A DNA stretch of 64,000 nt from Escherichia phage REP2. The translations under genes and the position numbers were made by a program. Below are positions 14,093-26,526 of this stretch, one piece after another (position 1 is the stretch's first letter; each line of letters starts with the position of its first letter). The notes under the pieces were generated by a model, which made no database searches, was not told the DNA's origin, and worked only from the letters and a program-made list of their open reading frames with translations. The stretch is from sequence record OQ174501.1; one strand, written 5' to 3'.

Positions 14093-14554
14093 ATGATTAT
14101 TAATGAAAACTCTTGGCACTATAAATTATTCAAACTGTTTAACGACGAATGGAAACGACCTAAGACACTGTGTGCATACTTTTGGTCTATTGTTATCCCT
14201 ACATTTTTCGTTTCTTTTTTCGGATGTACTATACTCGCAGGTCTAACTATTATCTGTGCAGAAATCATACAGAAATGGCTTATTTTTGGTAGTTTATGGA
14301 CTCTTCTTCCATCGGCATTTATACTTGCACTTTTGGTTGTTTTACTTATTATCGGTTCATTTGTTATTCCTGCACATTTGCGTGAAAAATATAAAGATTA
14401 TAAATGGAAAAAGGATTATGCTTTACACGTAGAAAATATTGATAGGGCGTATAAAGGTTTACCTCCTATTCAACCAAAGAAATCGGTTATCGTTGAATTT
14501 TTAAAAGCTCGTAAAGCTAAAGTATGTCCTGTTATTGAATATAAGGCTGAATGA
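14093..14554 (+). CDS. Membrane protein (3 predicted TM)
   Basis: Hydrophobic segments; ATGATG overlap with the downstream NTase gene. Confidence 0.55.
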   Translation: MIINENSWHYKLFKLFNDEWKRPKTLCAYFWSIVIPTFFVSFFGCTILAGLTIICAEIIQKWLIFGSLWTLLPSAFILALLVVLLIIGSFVIPAHLREKYKDYKWKKDYALHVENIDRAYKGLPPIQPKKSVIVEFLKARKAKVCPVIEYKAE

Positions 14555-15564
14555 TGAAAACAGTAATGAAAAGCTATTTTGGTAGTCATCTTTATGGAAC
14601 TTCTACCCCAGAATCTGATGTAGATTTTAAAGAAATCTTTGTTCCTCCTGCTCGCGATATTCTTATCGGAAATGTTAAAGAGCATATGAGTAAAAACACT
14701 AACAACACATCATCTAAAAACACTAAAGATGATATTGACCATGAACTATACAGTCTTAAATATTTCTTTAAATTAGCAGCAGATGGTGAAACTGTAGCGT
14801 TAGATATGCTTCACACTCCACCTGAACTAGTGGTTAAATCTGATTTGCCTGATGTGTGGAAGTTTATTCAAGACAACCGTTCTCGTTTTTATACGACTAA
14901 CATGAAATCCTATTTAGGATATGTTCGCAAGCAAGCTTCTAAATACGGTGTCAAGGGTTCTCGTTTGGCTGCATTACGCGATGTATTGAAAGTAGTTAAT
15001 CAAATCCCCGAGCAATGGGTTGATTACCAAGAAGACGGTTCCATTAAGCAGCGTCGTACTAAAGTTGAAGATATTAAGCATCGTCTTCCAGAAAACGAAT
15101 TCTGTGAATGGGTGTTCCATAATCATGAGAAAACAGGTCCACAAACGTTCTACACAGTGTTGGGTCGTAAATATCAGACAACGCTTTCTCTTATTGAGCT
15201 TAAGCAGTCACTGAACAAATTAGATGCTGAATATGGTGAACGTGCTCGTAAGGCCGAAGCCAATGAAGGTATTGACTGGAAAGCTCTGAGTCATGCTTGT
15301 CGTGGTGGACTTCAACTATTGGAAATTTACAAAACTGGTGACTTGGTTTATCCACTCCAAGATGCTCCATTTATTCTCGACGTGAAGTTGGGTAAACATC
15401 CATTTAAAACAGTTCAAGAGTTTTTGGAAGATGTGGTCGATCAAGTAGAAGCAGCATCTACTGAAGCTTCTAAGAATGGTATGCCTAAAACAGTAGATAT
15501 GAGCTTTTGGAATAATTTCCTCGAACAGGTTTATCTTGAAAACCACCGAAGTTATTATAAATGA
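14551..15564 (+). CDS. Pol-beta-superfamily nucleotidyltransferase-like protein
   Basis: FGSHLYGTSTPESDVDF (GS-x11-DxD) and downstream DDIDHE acidic motif; 337 aa. Confidence 0.6.
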   Translation: MMKTVMKSYFGSHLYGTSTPESDVDFKEIFVPPARDILIGNVKEHMSKNTNNTSSKNTKDDIDHELYSLKYFFKLAADGETVALDMLHTPPELVVKSDLPDVWKFIQDNRSRFYTTNMKSYLGYVRKQASKYGVKGSRLAALRDVLKVVNQIPEQWVDYQEDGSIKQRRTKVEDIKHRLPENEFCEWVFHNHEKTGPQTFYTVLGRKYQTTLSLIELKQSLNKLDAEYGERARKAEANEGIDWKALSHACRGGLQLLEIYKTGDLVYPLQDAPFILDVKLGKHPFKTVQEFLEDVVDQVEAASTEASKNGMPKTVDMSFWNNFLEQVYLENHRSYYK

Positions 15565-15566
15565 TA

Positions 15567-15591
15567 GGGAGCCTTCGGGCTCCCTTTTTTT
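15567..15591 (+). terminator. Rho-independent terminator
   Basis: gggagcc-ttcg-ggctccc + T7. Confidence 0.75.
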
Positions 15592-15604
15592 ATTTCAAAA
15601 ATTT

Positions 15605-15652
15605 TTTCACAAAATTGTTTACAAGCATAAAGCTTTATGGTACTATACAACT
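15605..15652 (+). promoter_or_regulatory. T4 early promoter
   Basis: GTTTAC 15617-15622, TACTAT 15641-15646; leader tatacaactatcaact...ggagaataaaATG shared with 705-790 and 43380-43458. Confidence 0.6.
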
Positions 15653-15680
15653 ATCAACTGATACGGATTTGGAGAATAAA

Positions 15681-16649
15681 ATGAAAACTGTAACTATCAA
15701 TAAGGGTATCTACTTCGGTAAAGAAATCTCTGGAACTTTTGAGCTCTTAGGCGAATGGTTCCCAGATAATGCTCCAGTAGATGCACAAGGAGATGGTAAA
15801 GTTTTTGTTGAAATTGACGGTAAACGTCGCGGTGTTTGGGTTTACAAATCAGACATTTCATATGATGGTGTAAAAGTTGAAGAAGTTAAAGAAACGTATG
15901 AAGATATGAAAACCCGCATTAATAAAAGATTTAATGTTATGGGAATGATGACGAATGGTATTATTAACGGAAACATTCGTTCATTAATTATCTCTGGTGC
16001 GGCAGGCATTGGTAAAACGTATTCTTTAGATAAAGCTTTAAATAAAGCAAATGATATTGGATACATTGAATATAAAAGCATTAATGGTAAAATCTCTGGT
16101 ATTGGTCTTTATGAACAGCTTTGGAATAATCGTGAAGAGAATTCTGTCCTTTTGATTGATGATGTGGATGTTTTCTCTGATATGGACATTCTTAATCTTC
16201 TGAAAGCTGCTCTGGACACCGGAGAGACCCGTAAAGTCTGCTGGAGCACTGCGTCTTCTTACTTAGAAGAAAAAGGCATTGAGCGTGAGTTTGAATTTAA
16301 AGGAACGATTGTTTTTATCACAAACGTTGACATTGACCGCGAATTAGACCGTGGTACTAAACTTGCTCCACATTTACAAGCATTAGTGTCCCGCTCGGTT
16401 TATTTGGATTTGGGTGTTCACACTAATGAAGAAATTATGGTCAGGGTTGAAGATGTTATTCTTTCAACTGACATGATGCAAAAGCGCGGTCTTTCTGATG
16501 AAGAAACTTATAAAGCATTATCATGGATGAAAGTTAATGTTAATCGTTTACGCAATGTTTCACTGCGTACTGCTCTTTATCTTGCTGACTTTATTATGAC
16601 CGACAAAAACGGTTGGGAAGAAATTGCTGAGGTTACTCTTCTGAAATAA
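15681..16649 (+). CDS. AAA+ family ATPase
   Basis: Walker A GAAGIGKT, Walker B VLLIDDVD; start at ATG after ggagaataaa (ORF track starts at 15561). Confidence 0.65.
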   Translation: MKTVTINKGIYFGKEISGTFELLGEWFPDNAPVDAQGDGKVFVEIDGKRRGVWVYKSDISYDGVKVEEVKETYEDMKTRINKRFNVMGMMTNGIINGNIRSLIISGAAGIGKTYSLDKALNKANDIGYIEYKSINGKISGIGLYEQLWNNREENSVLLIDDVDVFSDMDILNLLKAALDTGETRKVCWSTASSYLEEKGIEREFEFKGTIVFITNVDIDRELDRGTKLAPHLQALVSRSVYLDLGVHTNEEIMVRVEDVILSTDMMQKRGLSDEETYKALSWMKVNVNRLRNVSLRTALYLADFIMTDKNGWEEIAEVTLLK

Positions 16650-17113: not shown

Positions 17114-17641
17114 ATGAACGCTAAAGATATTTTCAACTTGGTAAATTACAACGATGGTAAATTTAAATCTGAAGCACAAAGCAAGTTCTTTAATGACATC
17201 TCAATCGGAGGTGAAATCACTGTTGATGGAGGACAAATTTACAAATCCCGTTGGAATTGGATCGTTATTATCGATGAGATTGGTATTGTAGAAATTTACA
17301 AGAATACGAATAAAAATCGTACATTACACTGGTCTCGTGATACTAACGAACAGTACAAAAAGGATAAAGCATCTAAATTATCTCGTGTAACTCAAGAAGA
17401 TATTGAGTTCATCAAGAAAGATATTTTGATGTATGATAACTTAATTGCTGAAGAGCAAGTTGTTATTGATAAATTTGACGAGATTAAAGCTTCTCGTGAA
17501 ATTCCTGATTTTATGAAAGAATCAGTAAATGAACGATATACTCTCATTTCAGAGCGTATTGAAACTTACAAAAAGCAAAGAGCTGAACGCCAAAATACTC
17601 TTCGGAAGTTTGAAGAACGGTTAAAGACGGTACTCGCATAA
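17114..17641 (+). CDS. Hypothetical protein
   Basis: 175 aa; SD ggagg. Confidence 0.55.
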   Translation: MNAKDIFNLVNYNDGKFKSEAQSKFFNDISIGGEITVDGGQIYKSRWNWIVIIDEIGIVEIYKNTNKNRTLHWSRDTNEQYKKDKASKLSRVTQEDIEFIKKDILMYDNLIAEEQVVIDKFDEIKASREIPDFMKESVNERYTLISERIETYKKQRAERQNTLRKFEERLKTVLA

Positions 17642-18112: not shown

Positions 18113-19000
18113 ATGTCAGTAGTAATTAATAATGTCAATGCAGTAATTAAATCTTTAGTTAATAAAAAATTGAATGAATGGACTGTACTTCGTCGTGGAG
18201 AGCCAGATAAATTTTTTCATAGATTTAACCCAACTTTAGATTTGAATGTTATTGACAGAGATGTTCATGCAGAAATTTTAGATAAGTTTAAAGTTGATAT
18301 TGGATTTGGATTAGAAAAACATTTACAGCGAACAAACGGGTCTGGAATGGGTTTATCTAATCGCATTATGAAAGCCCTTAATAAAATTGGAGCATTGTCT
18401 CGTATTAATGCAAGTGAAATTCTTCGCAATTATAATAAAGGCTATGATCTTTACGGTCGACTAATGCCGAAATTATCATTTGACCAAATGATCGCAGATT
18501 TGTGGGAAAATCAACGACGATTATTAGCATTAGGCGCTCGATTAGCTAAAGGTCTAGATAAACAAATGATTTTTAAGACCAATAATACAGAAGACCTTAA
18601 ATGCTTTAAATTTAGTATTCGCGGCGATGATTATTATATCAGAGCTCGCTCTACTGATTATGTTAATATGGGGCATCATCTCTGTTTAGCTTTTGAAGTT
18701 TTAAAAGAAGCCGGAACATTAGAATATGTGTCTGGTGCAAAATGCCCTATTGGTTCAAGTTGTATTTTAATTTATCGCCCGGATGAATCCAGTTCAACTA
18801 CATTGCCTACGAAACCTGTACCAGTTCGTAGTAACGAAAAACATTCTGAACAAATTGATTATTTTAATAAACAGATTGAAGAACTGAATATTTCTATTCA
18901 ACAATATGATGATGAAATTTTCAGACTATCTGGACTGAGTAGTAAAGCTAAATCTGAGCGTGAAAAGTTAATTAAAATTGTCGATTTACTTAAATCTTAA
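18113..19000 (+). CDS. Hypothetical protein with C-terminal coiled coil (tandem family, member 1)
   Basis: ATG after gaggaaaat (ORF track starts at 18098); C-terminal heptad-rich tail. Confidence 0.55.
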   Translation: MSVVINNVNAVIKSLVNKKLNEWTVLRRGEPDKFFHRFNPTLDLNVIDRDVHAEILDKFKVDIGFGLEKHLQRTNGSGMGLSNRIMKALNKIGALSRINASEILRNYNKGYDLYGRLMPKLSFDQMIADLWENQRRLLALGARLAKGLDKQMIFKTNNTEDLKCFKFSIRGDDYYIRARSTDYVNMGHHLCLAFEVLKEAGTLEYVSGAKCPIGSSCILIYRPDESSSTTLPTKPVPVRSNEKHSEQIDYFNKQIEELNISIQQYDDEIFRLSGLSSKAKSEREKLIKIVDLLKS

Positions 19001-19008
19001 GGAACACC

Positions 19009-20028
19009 ATGAAAACTCGTTCTCAAATTGAAGATATGGTTCGTAATGCCAGCTATACTCGTGATGTTATGACATTTTTGTGCCAAAATAATTTAGACCC
19101 TGATAAAGTTAATCGTGATATTCACTTTAAGTATATGAATAGCAGTGAATGGTTACGTCATTTTAATGAAGCAGGGTATATTACTCAAATGACTGCTCGT
19201 GAGCAGCTCACCGATTTCTGTAAAACTATTGATTATAAAAATCCTCTATTTGTTCAAGGCGTTGGTCAAAGTAAGGTCGATTTATCATCTGGATTTTTCA
19301 ATCCAAATCATTATCGTATTGAATGGAGATTTATTGCTCTATTCCGTAGACAATTAAAGCAAATTTTGTCTACTGCTAGTCGATTAAAAGGTTCTGATAT
19401 TAACTTAAAGAATCTTAAATTTGATGGTTATACTCTTCAGATGGAAGTAAGACCATTAAAAGAAAATAATAGAACTGCACGAATTAGCTTTAAACCTAAT
19501 ACAAAAAATTCTCTTTCAATTTGTGAATGCCTTAAATCGCAGTTGACAGAAGCATTTAAGTATATGGATGTTGTTGCTGCTGTTCAGTCTAAGATTTCAC
19601 AGCATTTCGAACGATTTAAATTAGACACAACAGCGTATGAACTTGATATGATCGTTTCATTTAAATATGAATTTTTGAGAAAAGATGAAGTCCCGCAAGA
19701 GAAAAAGCAGGAAGTGCAAGATAACTTAAATTTATCCAATTACTTATCAAACGATCCTAAATTTTGGATGTATAGTTCAGGTAATAAAGATGCATGGAAA
19801 TTTAATAAAGTGAATTTTCTTCCTATTGAAAATCCGAGTCTTAAACCTGTTGAAAAATGGCATGCAGATGCGATTGAGAAGTCTATCAAGGCAGTAGATG
19901 ATGAACTCGTTAAAGCAACTAATGAAGTGCTAGAAGCTGAAAAGATGTTGGAAAAAGCTCAAGAAAAAGTCAAAAATCTTACGAAGCAACGTTCTAAACT
20001 GAACAATGCACTAAATGCACTGAACTAG
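19009..20028 (+). CDS. Hypothetical protein with C-terminal coiled coil (member 2)
   Basis: 339 aa; C-terminal ~50 aa coiled coil. Confidence 0.55.
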   Translation: MKTRSQIEDMVRNASYTRDVMTFLCQNNLDPDKVNRDIHFKYMNSSEWLRHFNEAGYITQMTAREQLTDFCKTIDYKNPLFVQGVGQSKVDLSSGFFNPNHYRIEWRFIALFRRQLKQILSTASRLKGSDINLKNLKFDGYTLQMEVRPLKENNRTARISFKPNTKNSLSICECLKSQLTEAFKYMDVVAAVQSKISQHFERFKLDTTAYELDMIVSFKYEFLRKDEVPQEKKQEVQDNLNLSNYLSNDPKFWMYSSGNKDAWKFNKVNFLPIENPSLKPVEKWHADAIEKSIKAVDDELVKATNEVLEAEKMLEKAQEKVKNLTKQRSKLNNALNALN

Positions 20029-20060
20029 TTTACATTGCCACAAGGATGTGGTATAATGTT
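20020..20060 (+). promoter_or_regulatory. T4 early promoter
   Basis: GTTTAC 20028-20033, TATAAT 20052-20057. Confidence 0.6.
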
Positions 20061-20085
20061 CTTACTTTCTACTGAGGAGATTATT

Positions 20086-21087
20086 ATGACTCGTAACGAA
20101 TATATCAAATCATTCAATAGCGTTATTGATGATAAAGCTATACCGATGTTTGGTCAAAATATCGTTCTTTCTATTATCAATCAATGGCTCAATAGTGTTG
20201 ATGCAAGTATTGTTTCTTCTACTAAATTTATTCATGAAATTCGTAAAATTTCTAGCCGTGTAGATAAAGATGTTATCAAGAAAACCTTTAAAGAGTCTCG
20301 TCTTCTTTCATATTTGGTTAATCGGGATATTCTTGGTAATTTTGGGAAAGAAATTAAACGAACCAAAGATGTAGTAGGATATAATTGGTTCGGTGATGTT
20401 AATTCTTATCATCTTAATAATAAAGAAGACCCTGAGAATATTTTTACTCGTCGTTGGATTAGTAATTTCAGACTTTTCAAAGGACAGATTCTAAAATCAG
20501 CTTCTAAATTATGTTATGGCGATTATCGTCAAATTCATCCTTTGGCTTCTGATATGATTATCATAAAAGAATATGAACTTGATAAAAATAAAGTATCTAT
20601 TTTTGTGAATTATGGATTTTTTACACCAAACGCTAACCAAAAGAACATTAATAAATTTTTCTCAATTGCTAGCACTATAACTCGTCAGTTAGAGACTGCA
20701 TTACTTTGTATGGAAACAGTAGAAAATATTCATACATATCCTTTTAAGAATATATGCGGATGGGAAGGATATAAAATTGTAATTAGTCTTCGTGAAGTGA
20801 AATGTGCTTATTCACCTACTGATAAAGAAATTTATCAACAAAAATGTGAGGAAATTGTGAATACTCCTAAAGAAGAAACTACCCTTGAGGAACTAATGGA
20901 TAATCTTGATGATTCGCCTGAACCGGCAGAAATTCGTCCAGAAGTTATTGCACTAGAAAAAGCTTATAAAGAAGTTCTAGAAATTTCTAATAAAGCGCAG
21001 AAAGAATATGAGCAGGCTAAAAGGATTTGGGAAGAATCTGTTAATCGTCTTGATCGTTTGGAACAAGCTTTACAGTTAATTAAGTAA
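20086..21087 (+). CDS. Hypothetical protein with C-terminal coiled coil (member 3)
   Basis: ATG after gaggag (ORF track starts at 20035). Confidence 0.55.
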   Translation: MTRNEYIKSFNSVIDDKAIPMFGQNIVLSIINQWLNSVDASIVSSTKFIHEIRKISSRVDKDVIKKTFKESRLLSYLVNRDILGNFGKEIKRTKDVVGYNWFGDVNSYHLNNKEDPENIFTRRWISNFRLFKGQILKSASKLCYGDYRQIHPLASDMIIIKEYELDKNKVSIFVNYGFFTPNANQKNINKFFSIASTITRQLETALLCMETVENIHTYPFKNICGWEGYKIVISLREVKCAYSPTDKEIYQQKCEEIVNTPKEETTLEELMDNLDDSPEPAEIRPEVIALEKAYKEVLEISNKAQKEYEQAKRIWEESVNRLDRLEQALQLIK

Positions 21088-21139
21088 TTTAAAGCCAAGG
21101 ATGGCTCGGAGTATAAACCATTAACCAAGTGAGAAGAAT

Positions 21140-22063
21140 ATGAAAACTCGTAAACATTATATTGATTATTTTGACAGTCTTATTACTAAACACCGTAATT
21201 ATCAGATCGGACACAGAGCAGTAATCAATAATATTCTTCGTGATTTTTTAGACTATATTGGATGGGAAAACCATATTTGTAAAGATACACAAAATGCGTA
21301 TTCACATTCTCTTGGTTCTTTGCTCGAGTGGTTCAAACGTTCCCGATTACTATCTTCTGTGATAGCTGTTAATAATGTTAAAAAATTTATGTATCCAAGC
21401 TACATTGAGACTAATGTATCAAATGCTAATGTTGTTACATTTAATATTATTAATGACGTGAAAAGAACTTATTTAGAAGAATGGTTTTCTAAAAATAGTA
21501 AAGAAAAATTTGCTAGTGAGTTTTCACACGAATTTAATAATAATGTGAATATGCTTTTTAAGCATTCTCGTAGACTGTTTTGTCATGGCGATGACCGTAC
21601 TATTAATGTAAATGTAAAAGATTGGGTTACGGCTAAATTCATTCCATCGCAGAATGGACCAGTTGAATTGTCAATTATTGTTTGTGCTCCACATGAAATA
21701 TATAAAAATCTTCCATATATGAAACCATGCGAAGCTAATAAACATAATAAAACGATTCGTTCTTTGACTTATAATCTTCGTACGTTATTGTCTAAAATGG
21801 ACGTAGTTGAATCCTTTGATGATAATACGAATTATGGTCTTTCACTGTTTGAAACTAAAATTGTTATTAAGTTAAAGGACCCTAGTAAATTTAAACCTAC
21901 ACCAAAGCCCAATCATGGGAATGATACTATGAAAGAAGAACGCGAATATCTCAGTGCTCGTTTGATTGAAGTTGAAAAACAGATTGAAGAGCATACTAAA
22001 GTTCTTAAGGCTTTAACAGCCAAAGCAAATGGTTTACGTGATGCTATTGAGGTACTGAAATGA
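21140..22063 (+). CDS. Hypothetical protein with C-terminal coiled coil (member 4)
   Basis: 307 aa. Confidence 0.55.
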   Translation: MKTRKHYIDYFDSLITKHRNYQIGHRAVINNILRDFLDYIGWENHICKDTQNAYSHSLGSLLEWFKRSRLLSSVIAVNNVKKFMYPSYIETNVSNANVVTFNIINDVKRTYLEEWFSKNSKEKFASEFSHEFNNNVNMLFKHSRRLFCHGDDRTINVNVKDWVTAKFIPSQNGPVELSIIVCAPHEIYKNLPYMKPCEANKHNKTIRSLTYNLRTLLSKMDVVESFDDNTNYGLSLFETKIVIKLKDPSKFKPTPKPNHGNDTMKEEREYLSARLIEVEKQIEEHTKVLKALTAKANGLRDAIEVLK

Positions 22064-22377
22064 AAAAGCGTTTATTAGAAGATATTGCAGCTTCAAGTAA
22101 TTCCAGTCTAATTAAAATTATTATGGCTGGTGAGGAAGATGATATGGAAATGCGTGGAAAGATTCACGGCTGCGACGATTTAGATTTTAAACCTCCAGCA
22201 TGGGATGCTATTATGGCTATGGTTGAACGACGTGAAAGAGCTTCTAAAAACGTTCCTAATTGCCCTGAGTGTGGAACTGAACAGGTGCAATTGGTCCATT
22301 GGCAGACTAATAATCTTCGTTATAAATGTCGTCATTGTAAACGCCGATTTGACCGAGAAGAAAATGACAAAGCGTAA
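22060..22377 (+). CDS. Zinc-ribbon protein
   Basis: CPECG...CRHC motif; 105 aa. Confidence 0.5.
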
Positions 22378-22606
22378 AGAATATATGGAGGCTGCTGAAA
22401 AGGCAGTCCGTGAATTAGCAATAGCTTATTATAATGAACATGGTAAATTTCCTGATAGATACAGCGTGCTTAAATCAGCTTTAACTCGTTCATATAAAAA
22501 TATGCTATCAGAAGTAAGTGATATTATATACAAACATAAAGAACAAACGGGCCAAAGTCTTGATTACGACGAGACTTTTAAACAAGTACTAGGAATTAAG
22601 GAATAA
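22364..22606 (+). CDS. Hypothetical protein
   Basis: 80 aa; ORF track merges it into a longer overlapping frame from 22205. Confidence 0.45.
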
Positions 22607-23266: not shown

Positions 23267-23587
23267 ATGACTATTGAAAATAAATTAGATGTTGATGCAG
23301 TTCTGAGCGAAATCATTGAAGACCATGATGCATTTTCGGAAAACTATGATTTCGATTTTTCCGACTATCTTAAACCTATCGAAATAGAAGACTGGGTGCA
23401 AGATGGTAAATGCCAATATCGTCAGTGTGTTTACTTTAGTCCAAAACATAATGTACATGTAGCGGTAAATGAATCTCGGTCAGGTTCTTATCATTCTGAT
23501 TGGTATTATGCAGTTCCGACTGTTGAACTAGTCGAGCCCCATGAACGTGTAGTAACTCAGACAGTACGAGAATGGATTACGCTATAA
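23267..23587 (+). CDS. Hypothetical protein
   Basis: 106 aa. Confidence 0.5.
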   Translation: MTIENKLDVDAVLSEIIEDHDAFSENYDFDFSDYLKPIEIEDWVQDGKCQYRQCVYFSPKHNVHVAVNESRSGSYHSDWYYAVPTVELVEPHERVVTQTVREWITL

Positions 23588-23710: not shown

Positions 23711-24196
23711 ATGATTACAGTAGATAAGTGGTTTAGAATTAATCGTGCTGATACAGGGCTGTGTAATTACTGGCCGGAACTTAGTGCAGGTACTGTCTTT
23801 AAAGTTCGTGAACTTGCAAAAGAATGTGAAGATGATATAGAGCCTGATACTGGAATTATTGAAATTGAACTTTCTGATGGAAAGATTATTAACATCTACG
23901 ATAAGCCAATTACGTATTGGTGCTTGTGGAATACTGAATCAGTAGAAAATGGCGAAATTGAAGAAGTTGTAGATAGAACTAATCAAGTTGTTCAGAAGCC
24001 TAAAGCTGATTTTCAAGGTGAACGTATTTCATACGCATTAGCTAAATTAGCTGCACAAGAAAATAACGATGGCTATGAAGGAAATTTGATGCAAGCTGCG
24101 GCAGAATATATTGAATGGCTTGAAACCCAAATTTCTTTTTCTGACCAAAAGATTCGGCAATATAAGCGATTGAATCAAATGTTTTTCAATACTTGA
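23711..24196 (+). CDS. pin: Pin (inhibitor of host Lon protease), tentative
   Basis: 161 aa from ATG 23711; sits immediately upstream of gene 49 as in T4. Confidence 0.6.
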   Translation: MITVDKWFRINRADTGLCNYWPELSAGTVFKVRELAKECEDDIEPDTGIIEIELSDGKIINIYDKPITYWCLWNTESVENGEIEEVVDRTNQVVQKPKADFQGERISYALAKLAAQENNDGYEGNLMQAAAEYIEWLETQISFSDQKIRQYKRLNQMFFNT

Positions 24197-24238: not shown

Positions 24239-24712
24239 ATGTTATTGACTGGCAAATTATACAAAGAAGAAAAACAAAAATTTTATAATGCACAAAACGG
24301 TAAATGCTTAATTTGCCAACGAGAACTAAATCCTGATGTTCAAGCTAATCATCTTGATCATGACCATGAATTAAATGGACCAAAAGCAGGAAAGGTACGT
24401 GGATTGCTTTGTAATCTCTGCAATGCCACAGAAGGTCAAATGAAACATAAATTTAATCGTTCTGGCTTAAAGGGGCAAGGTGTTGATTATCTTGAATGGT
24501 TAGAAAATTTACTTACTTATTTAAAATCCGATTACACCCAAAATAATATTCACCCTAACTTTGTTGGAGATAAATCAAAGGAATTTTCTCGTTTAGGAAA
24601 AGAGGAAATGATGGCTGAGATGCTTCAAAGAGGATTTGAATATAATGAATCTGACACTAAAACACAATTAATAGCTTCATTTAAGAAGCAGCTTAGAAAG
24701 AGTTTAAAATGA
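24239..24712 (+). CDS. 49: Endonuclease VII (Holliday junction resolvase)
   Basis: 157 aa; zinc motif CLICQ...CNLCN and HxH; matches T4 gp49 as I recall it. Confidence 0.9.
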   Translation: MLLTGKLYKEEKQKFYNAQNGKCLICQRELNPDVQANHLDHDHELNGPKAGKVRGLLCNLCNATEGQMKHKFNRSGLKGQGVDYLEWLENLLTYLKSDYTQNNIHPNFVGDKSKEFSRLGKEEMMAEMLQRGFEYNESDTKTQLIASFKKQLRKSLK

Positions 24713-26526
24713 CAATTGAAAAAGAAATTGAAGGATTGATTCATAAAACTAATAAAGACCTTTTAAACGAGAATGCTAATAAAGATTCTCGTGTTTTTCC
24801 AACTCAACGGGACCTTATGGCTGGTATTGTGTCTAAACACATTGCCAAAAATATGGTCCCGTCTTTTATTATGAAAGCGCATGAAAGCGGAATTATTCAT
24901 TTCCATGATATTGATTATTCCCCTGCTCTTCCATTTACTAATTGCTGTTTAGTAGATTTAAAAGGAATGCTTGAGAACGGATTTAAGCTTGGTAATGCAC
25001 AGATTGAAACTCCTAAATCAATTGGCGTTGCTACTGCAATTATGGCACAAATTACTGCGCAAGTTGCTTCCCATCAATATGGCGGAACGACTTTTGCTAA
25101 TGTAGATAAAGTACTTTCTCCTTATGTTAAACGCACCTATGCAAAACATATTGAGGATGCAGAAAAATGGCAAATCGCTGATGCGTTAAATTATGCTCAA
25201 TCTAAAACAGAAAAAGATGTATACGATGCATTCCAAGCTTATGAATATGAAGTAAATACTCTCTTTAGTTCAAACGGACAAACACCTTTTGTAACAATTA
25301 CATTTGGTACAGGAACTGACTGGACTGAACGAATGATTCAGAAAGCAATTCTGAAAAATCGTATTAAAGGTCTCGGTCGTGATGGGATAACTCCTATTTT
25401 CCCTAAGCTTGTTATGTTCGTTGAAGAAGGTGTTAATCTTTATAAAGACGATCCGAACTATGATATTAAACTGCTTGCTCTAGAGTGCGCAAGCAAAAGA
25501 ATGTATCCTGATATTATTTCAGCTAAGAACAATAAAGCTATCACTGGCTCATCTATTCCTGTTTCTCCAATGGGTTGTCGTAGTTTCTTGAGCGTATGGA
25601 AAGATTCGACTGGCAATGAAATTCTTGATGGACGTAATAATCTCGGTGTTGTAACACTGAATCTTCCTCGTATCGCATTAGATTCTTATATTGGAACACA
25701 GTTCAATGAACAGAAATTTATCGAATTGTTCAATGAACGAATGGATTTATGTTTTGAAGCTTTGATGTGTAGAATTAGTTCCTTAAAAGGAGTTAAAGCG
25801 ACTGTTGCTCCTATTCTTTACCAAGAAGGTGCATTCGGGGTTCGTCTTAAACCTGATGACGACATAATTGAGTTATTTAAAAACGGTAGAAGTTCAGTGT
25901 CTTTAGGATACATTGGTATTCATGAATTGAATATTCTTGTCGGTCGTGATATTGGACAAGAAATTTTAACTAAAATGAATGCTCGTCTTAAACAGTGGAC
26001 TGAAAGAACTGGGTTTGCTTTTAGTTTATATTCGACTCCTGCTGAAAACCTTTGTTATCGCTTCTGTAAACTCGATACAGAAAAATATGGAAGCGTAAAA
26101 GATGTTACTGATAAAGGCTGGTACACTAACAGTTTCCACGTTTCAGTAGAAGAAAATGTTACTCCGTTTGAAAAGATTTCTCGTGAAGCGCCATATCATT
26201 TCATTGCGACAGGTGGTCACATTTCTTATGTTGAACTTCCTGATATGAAAAATAACTTAAAAGGTCTTGAGGCTGTATGGGATTATGCCGCACAACATTT
26301 AGATTATTTTGGTGTTAATATGCCAGTAGATAAATGTTTTACATGTGGAAGTACCCATGAAATGACTCCTACTGAAAACGGATTTGTTTGTTCTATTTGT
26401 GGAGAAACTGATCCTAAAAAGATGAATACAATAAGAAGAACATGTGGTTATTTGGGAAATCCGAACGAGCGCGGATTTAATCTCGGTAAAAATAAAGAAA
26501 TCATGCATAGGGTTAAACACCAATGA
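24709..26526 (+). CDS. nrdD: Anaerobic ribonucleoside-triphosphate reductase
   Basis: 605 aa; C-terminal glycyl radical motif RRTCGYLG and Cys zinc motif; uninterrupted ORF with no intron. Confidence 0.93.
   Translation: MTIEKEIEGLIHKTNKDLLNENANKDSRVFPTQRDLMAGIVSKHIAKNMVPSFIMKAHESGIIHFHDIDYSPALPFTNCCLVDLKGMLENGFKLGNAQIETPKSIGVATAIMAQITAQVASHQYGGTTFANVDKVLSPYVKRTYAKHIEDAEKWQIADALNYAQSKTEKDVYDAFQAYEYEVNTLFSSNGQTPFVTITFGTGTDWTERMIQKAILKNRIKGLGRDGITPIFPKLVMFVEEGVNLYKDDPNYDIKLLALECASKRMYPDIISAKNNKAITGSSIPVSPMGCRSFLSVWKDSTGNEILDGRNNLGVVTLNLPRIALDSYIGTQFNEQKFIELFNERMDLCFEALMCRISSLKGVKATVAPILYQEGAFGVRLKPDDDIIELFKNGRSSVSLGYIGIHELNILVGRDIGQEILTKMNARLKQWTERTGFAFSLYSTPAENLCYRFCKLDTEKYGSVKDVTDKGWYTNSFHVSVEENVTPFEKISREAPYHFIATGGHISYVELPDMKNNLKGLEAVWDYAAQHLDYFGVNMPVDKCFTCGSTHEMTPTENGFVCSICGETDPKKMNTIRRTCGYLGNPNERGFNLGKNKEIMHRVKHQ

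Follow-up and report, generated by a model that had tools for sequence, protein, structure and literature searches.

In 2022, Srikant et al. (eLife 2022, PMC9391042) reported that NrdC.5 of phage T4, a DUF7235 protein, allows the phage to overcome Dsr1, a SIR2 defence protein: a T4 clone without nrdC.5 failed to grow both on ECOR17 and on an MG1655 strain provided with dsr1 from ECOR17, and expression of nrdC.5 restored T4 growth on Dsr1 cells. The authors called the gene early and non-essential, and its loss was costless on the laboratory host. Dsr1 has elsewhere been termed poorly characterised, and the trigger of the Escherichia coli protein is reported to be the phage major capsid protein, acting via an Avs7-type sensor (PMC13581612). 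In this work, we analyse the orthologue of nrdC.5 together with the three genes beside it, nrdC.6, nrdC.4 and nrdC.3, in a 64,000-nucleotide stretch of Escherichia phage REP2 (OQ174501.1), hereafter the window, in whose numbering positions are given.

Two other described systems come close to NrdC.5, each in a different respect. DSAD1 of SPbeta-like phages inhibits the SIR2 defence protein DSR2 and is reported to bind it without activation. It is a functional analogue of NrdC.5, both being phage proteins that neutralise a virion-triggered sensor-SIR2 NADase, although DSAD1 belongs to another phage group and acts on another target, and the likeness is one of function. The T4 internal proteins, in turn, are accessory anti-defence proteins that combine a short conserved terminal module with highly divergent bodies, and their gene content varies between related phages. 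However, their common module is an N-terminal capsid-targeting peptide, and they are made late and injected with the DNA, whereas the NrdC.3 to NrdC.6 proteins have a C-terminal heptad helix and a homologous core in common and are encoded in an early gene cluster.

The four genes and the NrdC.5 phenotype are already known. Here, by profile-profile and structure comparison, we show that the four proteins are true, very diverged paralogues built on a common architecture. This relationship appears to be undescribed so far: neither the paralogy nor the architecture is described in the NrdC.5 work, and in the full-text literature we found no paper treating nrdC.3 to nrdC.6 as a paralogous family, their C-terminal helix or their single-copy relatives. 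We further consider it rather probable that the four genes form a family of stoichiometric inhibitors, each with a variable target-binding head and an oligomerising helix.

Four diverged paralogues

The window derives from a Tequatrovirus, and the array lies at 18113-22063, with all four open reading frames (ORFs) on the plus strand and in the same order as in T4, between nrdC.7/nrdC.8 and nrdC.2/nrdC. The nrdC.6 orthologue (18113..19000) encodes 295 amino acids, 97% identical to T4 NrdC.6 over 258 residues, and is assigned to phrog_2257. It is followed by the orthologues of nrdC.5 (19009..20028; 339 amino acids, 94% identity to T4 NrdC.5), nrdC.4 (20086..21087; 333 amino acids, 97% identity to T4 NrdC.4) and nrdC.3 (21140..22063; 307 amino acids, 96% identity to T4 NrdC.3). 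A sequence-only reading that preceded our analysis had described four consecutive genes of 295-339 residues, and its coordinates and lengths proved exact. Each gene begins with ATG behind a GAGG-type ribosome-binding site, and the start codons fit both these sites and the invariant N-termini of the families. At the nucleotide level, this 4.1-kb stretch matches Escherichia phage REP3 at 99.2%, and at least 80% of it is covered in 461 of the 504 matching phage records.

Family databases keep most of these proteins apart. In Pfam, NrdC.5 matches DUF7235 (PF23882) over the entire profile (positions 1-307 of 307; E = 1.6e-121, 405.9 bits against a gathering threshold of 30 bits), and the other three proteins of the window have no match in the Pfam version searched. 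Two newer Pfam entries are found on database relatives, PF26897 on those of NrdC.4 and PF26899 on those of NrdC.6, such that three of the four genes are split over separate Pfam families and nrdC.3 has no assignment. In PHROGs, NrdC.4 (E = 5.6e-169) and NrdC.3 (E = 2.6e-101) both fall in phrog_1435, and NrdC.6 and NrdC.5 in two other families. NrdC.3 is the closest paralogue of NrdC.4, and its distribution is very narrow: phmmer across 1.8 billion representatives returned its own cluster and fragments only.

Among the four proteins, BLASTP links NrdC.4 with NrdC.3 (E = 2.8e-4) and finds no match for the other five of the six pairs, in agreement with the divergent N-terminal regions noted in the sequence-only reading. 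NrdC.6, NrdC.4 and NrdC.3 are 10-25% identical to NrdC.5, belong to other families (PF26899, PF26897, phrog_2257 and phrog_1435) and have no known target. The five blank pairs are what one would see if the resemblance were compositional only, the array then consisting of four unrelated genes with charged helical ends. Comparison at the profile level leaves this explanation practically no credence. Anchored on nrdC.10, a conserved neighbour, we gathered 46 syntenic viral-contig loci and several annotated phages, clustered the 240-400-residue proteins encoded downstream of it, and compared the clusters all against all with hhalign, both at full length and without the last 60 residues. The profiles were merged via single-copy intermediates from other T4-like genera after removal of a chimeric protein, P0056.

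With the last 60 residues removed, NrdC.4 and NrdC.3 aligned at 98% probability (E = 6e-15), as their untrimmed family profiles had done. Helix-trimmed NrdC.5 aligned with the merged profile of NrdC.4, NrdC.3 and two intermediates at 95.7% (E = 8.7e-9) over 137 collinear columns, in which residues 48-187 of NrdC.5 form the aligned core, and for the helix-trimmed NrdC.6 family the link to the merged profile reached 96.4% (E = 1.4e-9). Overall, the helix-trimmed links ranged from 95.7 to 98.4%, and four unrelated neighbour families, compared as controls with the nrdC.3 to nrdC.6 profiles, reached at most 2%. The aligned bodies have motifs in common, namely a long basic helix whose end reads ASKL..GD, ASRLKGSD or GARLAKGLD and a second motif in which QLETALLCMETVE aligns with QLTEAFKYMDVVA.

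Two candidate relationships were rejected along the way. A strong edge between NrdC.5 and NrdC.3 (98% in hhalign, with hidden Markov model matches) was an artefact of P0056 in the alignments and dropped to 31% once the chimera was removed. Likewise, nrdC.8, an anti-defence gene whose product has a helical tail, was considered as a truncated family member, and hhalign gave it a probability of at most 2%.

The predicted structures extend this relationship across families. The AlphaFold2 model of NrdC.4, with a mean predicted local distance difference test (pLDDT) score of 81.9, comprises a helical N-domain (residues 1-84), an alpha/beta core (88-235), a disordered linker (about 240-284) and a helix (285-332). 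Searched against BFVD, it matches an NrdC.3-like protein (E = 5e-8), NrdC.6 of phage JS10 (E = 5.9e-5) and proteins of 300-370 residues from Acinetobacter, Klebsiella, Erwinia, Serratia and Pectobacterium phages (E of 1e-4 or lower), as well as uncharacterised proteins of the same size from Enterobacter and Yersinia phages; a protein of Aeromonas phage Aeh1 gave a marginal match (E = 0.011). NrdC.6 is laid out in the same way, with a helical N-terminal region, an alpha/beta core, a short proline-rich linker and a C-terminal helix. The model of NrdC.5, built from 18 mostly close homologues, has a pLDDT of 43.8 with the helix as its sole confident part, and was kept out of the fold searches.

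The architecture common to every member is thus a small helical N-domain, an alpha/beta core organised around the long basic helix with its (K/R)L..G(D) end, a disordered proline-rich or acidic linker, and an amphipathic heptad helix of 45-60 residues at the extreme C-terminus. The trimmed profile links, the common motifs and the BFVD matches together show that the four genes are true paralogues, and the paralogous family proposed from the sequence alone therefore stands: the bodies are homologous at the profile level and the tails periodic, so that the resemblance goes beyond composition. The MKTR start common to NrdC.5 and NrdC.3, which the same reading had singled out, is real and amounts to a minor remnant of a conserved M(K)TR..YI..F N-terminus in the NrdC.3/NrdC.4 group. 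Searches for more distant relatives returned little. PDB sequence searches with three family profiles found nothing meaningful, NCBIfam and PADLOC gave sub-threshold coiled-coil noise only, and the lone match to the PADLOC defence-system models was of coiled-coil type, between the NrdC.4 tail and BrxC (E = 0.0017). Sequence searches of Pfam, NCBIfam, PADLOC and the PDB revealed neither an enzyme family nor a catalytic signature in the four proteins.

A heptad-periodic helix at the C-terminus

All four proteins end in a heptad-periodic helix, encoded on the plus strand at 18851..18997 in nrdC.6 (residues 247-295; p = 0.004, with 12 of 14 a/d positions hydrophobic), 19846..20025 in nrdC.5 (residues 280-339; p = 0.0002), 20938..21084 in nrdC.4 (residues 285-333; p = 0.0002) and 21929..22060 in nrdC.3 (residues 264-307; p = 0.006, with L, I, V or M at 10 of 14 a/d positions). 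These values (p = 0.0002-0.006) refer to the 3.5-residue hydrophobic periodicity of the last 49 residues against shuffled sequences, and when the 66 plus-strand ORFs of at least 120 residues in the window are ordered by this measure, the four tails take places 1, 2, 4 and 5. In both proteins that were modelled, AlphaFold2 places a single uninterrupted helix at the C-terminus, spanning residues 280-338 of NrdC.5 and 285-332 of NrdC.4; along the former, the mean pLDDT of 10-residue blocks climbs from 56 to 92. The C-terminal coiled coil of the sequence-only reading is thus borne out as a periodic helix of 45-60 residues, with oligomerisation as its predicted function.

The tails also have an end motif in common, roughly [QE]R.KL..A[LIM]..L.K, also present in relatives belonging to other genera. 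Between genera, the helix is the best conserved segment within each family, with 61-64% identity as opposed to 18-49% for the N-terminal and core regions; in the NrdC.6 family, the corresponding figures are 64% and 18-45%. The family therefore combines a helix that is its most conserved part and a body that is its most variable part with variation in copy number and alleles.

This pattern is open to a second interpretation, in which the conserved helix would itself be the effector and act by docking to a single partner common to all members, for instance a host factor or a domain found in several defence proteins. The bodies would then vary mainly to evade host sensors or to tune regulation, and the paralogues would share one activity, redundantly or in variant forms, and not inhibit different systems. 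In favour of such a role, the helix is the most conserved segment in every family, the tail motif held across the superfamily exceeds plain heptad periodicity, and profile links between families at full length often depend on the tail, as between clusters c2 and c17 (95% at full length versus 34% when trimmed). Nevertheless, four copies of one activity are hard to explain in a size-limited genome, the bodies retain conserved core motifs and hence are under a constraint of their own, and amphipathic heptad helices typically serve oligomerisation. We regard an effector helix as unlikely, though the strongest of the alternatives, and retain as the preferred reading inhibitors in which the body would bind the target and the helix would assemble the protein.

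In the reference T4 genome (NC_000866, 10067-10894, minus strand), nrdC.6 is annotated with 275 residues owing to a frameshift after ...NKQIEEL, and another frame still encodes the remainder of the C-terminal helix (ISIQQYDDEIFRLSGL...LLKS) intact. In strain T4T and most relatives the protein has 295-296 residues, and the frameshift stems either from an error in sequencing or from a mutation of the laboratory strain.

Copy number and alleles across T4-like phages

The array is a lineage-specific tandem expansion, from one to three to four copies, of a non-essential early family of T4-like phages (Straboviridae) that resides beside nrdC.10/nrdC.11. A family gene lies downstream of nrdC.10 in most of the 46 viral-contig loci and in annotated loci of Tevenvirinae and Twarogvirinae. 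Most genera have a single copy, Dhakavirus (JS98) and Mosigvirus (ATK48) have three, and Tequatrovirus has four; in Aeromonas phage UP87 and Vibrio phage K364, nrdC.10 is present and no family gene adjoins it. The anchor pair itself, nrdC.11 (nucleotidyltransferase-like) and nrdC.10 (an AAA+/clamp-loader-like ATPase), is highly conserved and lies at 14551-16649 in the window; nrdC.10 occurs in 1311 phage records, Vibrio and jumbo coliphages included.

An Acinetobacter phage contig (IMGVR_UViG_650627003, locus L045, 16220-18224) carries two adjacent genes of 348 and 318 residues whose products end in heptad helices. The UniProt entries E5EYP1 (348 residues) and E5EYP0 (318 residues) have consecutive accessions and match this pair by length; in BFVD, they match the NrdC.4 model structurally at E = 1.1e-3 and 5e-5, respectively. 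The pair would be an independent tandem duplication outside Tevenvirinae.

Copy number also varies within genera, so that the family shows one to four copies both between and within them. In the Tequatrovirus Bas43 (TadeuszReichstein, locus L063, 4918-6430), nrdC.3 comes straight after nrdC.8, with nrdC.7, nrdC.6, nrdC.5 and nrdC.4 missing. Phage G8 (loci L004 and L016) has nrdC.4 split into ORFs of 193 and 158 residues, and BFVD holds a matching 155-residue nrdC.4 fragment from T2. The chimera P0056, found on three contigs (about 167 kb, fPS-65-like), joins residues 145-271 of NrdC.5 to the C-terminal half of a variant NrdC.3 allele at a short common ...N(K/N)VN... stretch, which implies deletion or recombination between members of the array.

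Besides, nrdC.3 occurs in three deep allelic classes: 139 phage records have an identity of 90% or more, another 359 of about 61% and a further 155 of about 56%. Between otherwise near-identical Tequatroviruses, nrdC.3 and the overlapping downstream nrdC.2 (21140-22377) show a synonymous divergence (dS) of about 0.8-1.0 and amino acid identities of 61-67%, which suggests that the nrdC.3-nrdC.2 segment has been mosaically replaced by recombination.

An anti-defence island and a possible mechanism

The genes around the array are themselves reported inhibitors of bacterial defence. Upstream, at 17114..17641 (plus strand), lies the nrdC.8 orthologue, whose 175-residue product has a helical tail, lies outside the family and clusters at 90% with bas37_0203 of phage KarlGJung, its orthologue and a reported inhibitor of Druantia type III (preprint 10.1101/2025.11.20.689424). 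Downstream, also on the plus strand, are the orthologues of nrdC.1 (22364..22606; 99% identity to T4 NrdC.1), reported in the same preprint to inhibit Septu, and of gene 49.2 (23267..23587; 97% identity to T4 gp49.2), whose T6 counterpart inhibits OLD (PMC13096335). Since nrdC.8, nrdC.1 and gp49.2 are counter-defence genes, the array sits inside an anti-defence island that extends from about 17.1 to 24.2 kb and comprises nrdC.8, the array, nrdC.1, 49.2 and pin (23711-24196). Further downstream, at 24709-26526, nrdD is one unbroken ORF of 605 residues; the T4 gene has a group I intron with I-TevII.

By its orthology to T4 NrdC.5, with 94% identity and the same position, the NrdC.5 of the window would likewise be expected to act against Dsr1. 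As one copy is known to switch off Dsr1, the remaining members of the array are promising candidate inhibitors of further defences. The anti-defence arsenal suggested by the sequence-only reading is accordingly backed for nrdC.5 by its action against Dsr1 (PMC9391042) and by the island context, and is something we infer for nrdC.3, nrdC.4 and nrdC.6.

A role outside defence would make these genes early accessory factors for host takeover or nucleotide metabolism, or agents of phage-phage competition. They do sit between nrdC and tk, in many GenBank records they go under the name thioredoxin, in keeping with their nrdC.x gene names, and a phenotype is known for one of the four. Against this, no thioredoxin, glutaredoxin or other enzyme domain was found in the four proteins with Pfam and NCBIfam, the fold of the NrdC.4 model is not that of thioredoxin, and the labels come from gene names. 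The anti-Dsr1 phenotype of nrdC.5 and its dispensability on the laboratory host (PMC9391042), the anti-defence function of the flanking genes, and the absence of some or all copies from natural phages also argue for defence, and we hold a purely non-defensive role to be very doubtful. With regard to these labels, GenBank entries for nrdC.3 to nrdC.10 often read "thioredoxin" or "thioredoxin, phage-associated", and T4 49.2 is called "ribonucleotide reductase". Neither term is backed by a domain match, and both look like names spread from the adjacent nrdC gene.

In the mechanism that we prefer, each paralogue would act as a stoichiometric protein inhibitor, aimed at a bacterial defence protein or allele that differs from one paralogue to the next. 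Target binding would fall to the variable N-domain and core, and the conserved helix at the C-terminus would bring inhibitor molecules together in a coiled-coil oligomer, which may provide avidity for oligomeric defence proteins or block their activating oligomerisation. Early expression, from sigma-70-type promoters, would place the inhibitors ahead of late structural triggers such as the major capsid protein that activates E. coli Dsr1. A candidate promoter of this T4 early type lies in the gap between nrdC.5 and nrdC.4 (20029..20057, plus strand), where TTTACA and an extended -10 element, TGgTATAAT, are separated by 17 nucleotides. It is a consensus match, with 11 of 12 positions, and the best between 16500 and 22700; promoter and terminator scans of the region gave totals not above those of shuffled sequence, and this site alone stands out. 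The same 57-bp gap contains a 7-bp hairpin (GCCACAAGGATGTGGT) at 20036-20053, within the spacer of the promoter-like site, and the gap between nrdC.4 and nrdC.3 contains a second small hairpin (about 21093-21118) followed by TATAAA.

A different account of the body is that its core has a tail-terminator-like fold of the lambda gpU type and serves as an early structural decoy, occupying pattern-recognition sensors of conserved virion proteins without activating them. We consider this improbable. Foldseek gave no significant match between an nrdC protein and tail terminators, and none of the four proteins has a match to a tail-terminator family in Pfam, PHROGs or NCBIfam. The nrdC proteins have no sequence relationship to tail terminator or completion proteins and add an N-domain, a linker and a long helix. 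They are encoded in the early accessory region between nrdC and tk, whereas tail terminator genes lie in the late tail module. A bolder form of the idea joins it to the coiled coil. It pictures a modular immune-sensor-blocking platform across T4-like phages, in which coiled-coil homo- or hetero-oligomers would carry interchangeable, fast-evolving heads, each plugging a different bacterial pattern-recognition receptor among the Dsr1/Avs7-type and other virion-protein sensors. The heads, derived from a tail-terminator-like virion fold, would be non-activating decoys made before the true triggers, and the nrdC.5/nrdC.3 chimera would exemplify the shuffling of heads and tails towards new specificities. 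We put this forward as speculation, with little expectation that it holds as a whole.

Several points weigh against the inhibitor family as we picture it. The body of NrdC.5 is assigned to the common fold through a profile alignment of about 140 columns, and its fold identity is to that extent putative. Oligomerisation is proposed from the periodicity of the helix, and the high conservation of the helix could denote a functional surface and not a scaffold. Direct binding of NrdC.5 to Dsr1 is assumed, and the accessible literature mentions no phenotype for nrdC.3, nrdC.4 or nrdC.6. In addition, the signature of an arms race is weak, because the gene-wide ratio of nonsynonymous to synonymous divergence (dN/dS) is below 1 everywhere, which gives no support to positive selection, and nrdC.6 evolves as slowly as its neighbours. 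The ratio is raised in nrdC.5, nrdC.4 and nrdC.3 (0.15-0.30, versus 0-0.1 for nrdC.8 to nrdC.11 and nrdC) and likewise in nrdC.7 and nrdC.2; nrdC.10 and nrdC.11, at 0.1 or less, are strongly constrained. The term "diversifying", used of the family in the sequence-only reading, is apt as a description of its one to four copies, its alleles, the chimera, the split gene and the raised ratios of three members; as a statement about selection it finds no support in ratios that stay below 1 and are not elevated in nrdC.6.

The comparison nonetheless yields a structure-function hypothesis, in which the variable head would pick the target and the conserved helix would assemble the inhibitor. If all four proteins copy one inhibitor scaffold, three "dark matter" genes of T4 would become specific counter-defence candidates, and the single-copy relatives in Klebsiella, Enterobacter, Acinetobacter, Serratia and Erwinia phages would be candidates likewise. 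Because natural isolates differ in the copies and alleles that they carry, the family would also bear on the host range of T4-like phages used in therapy.

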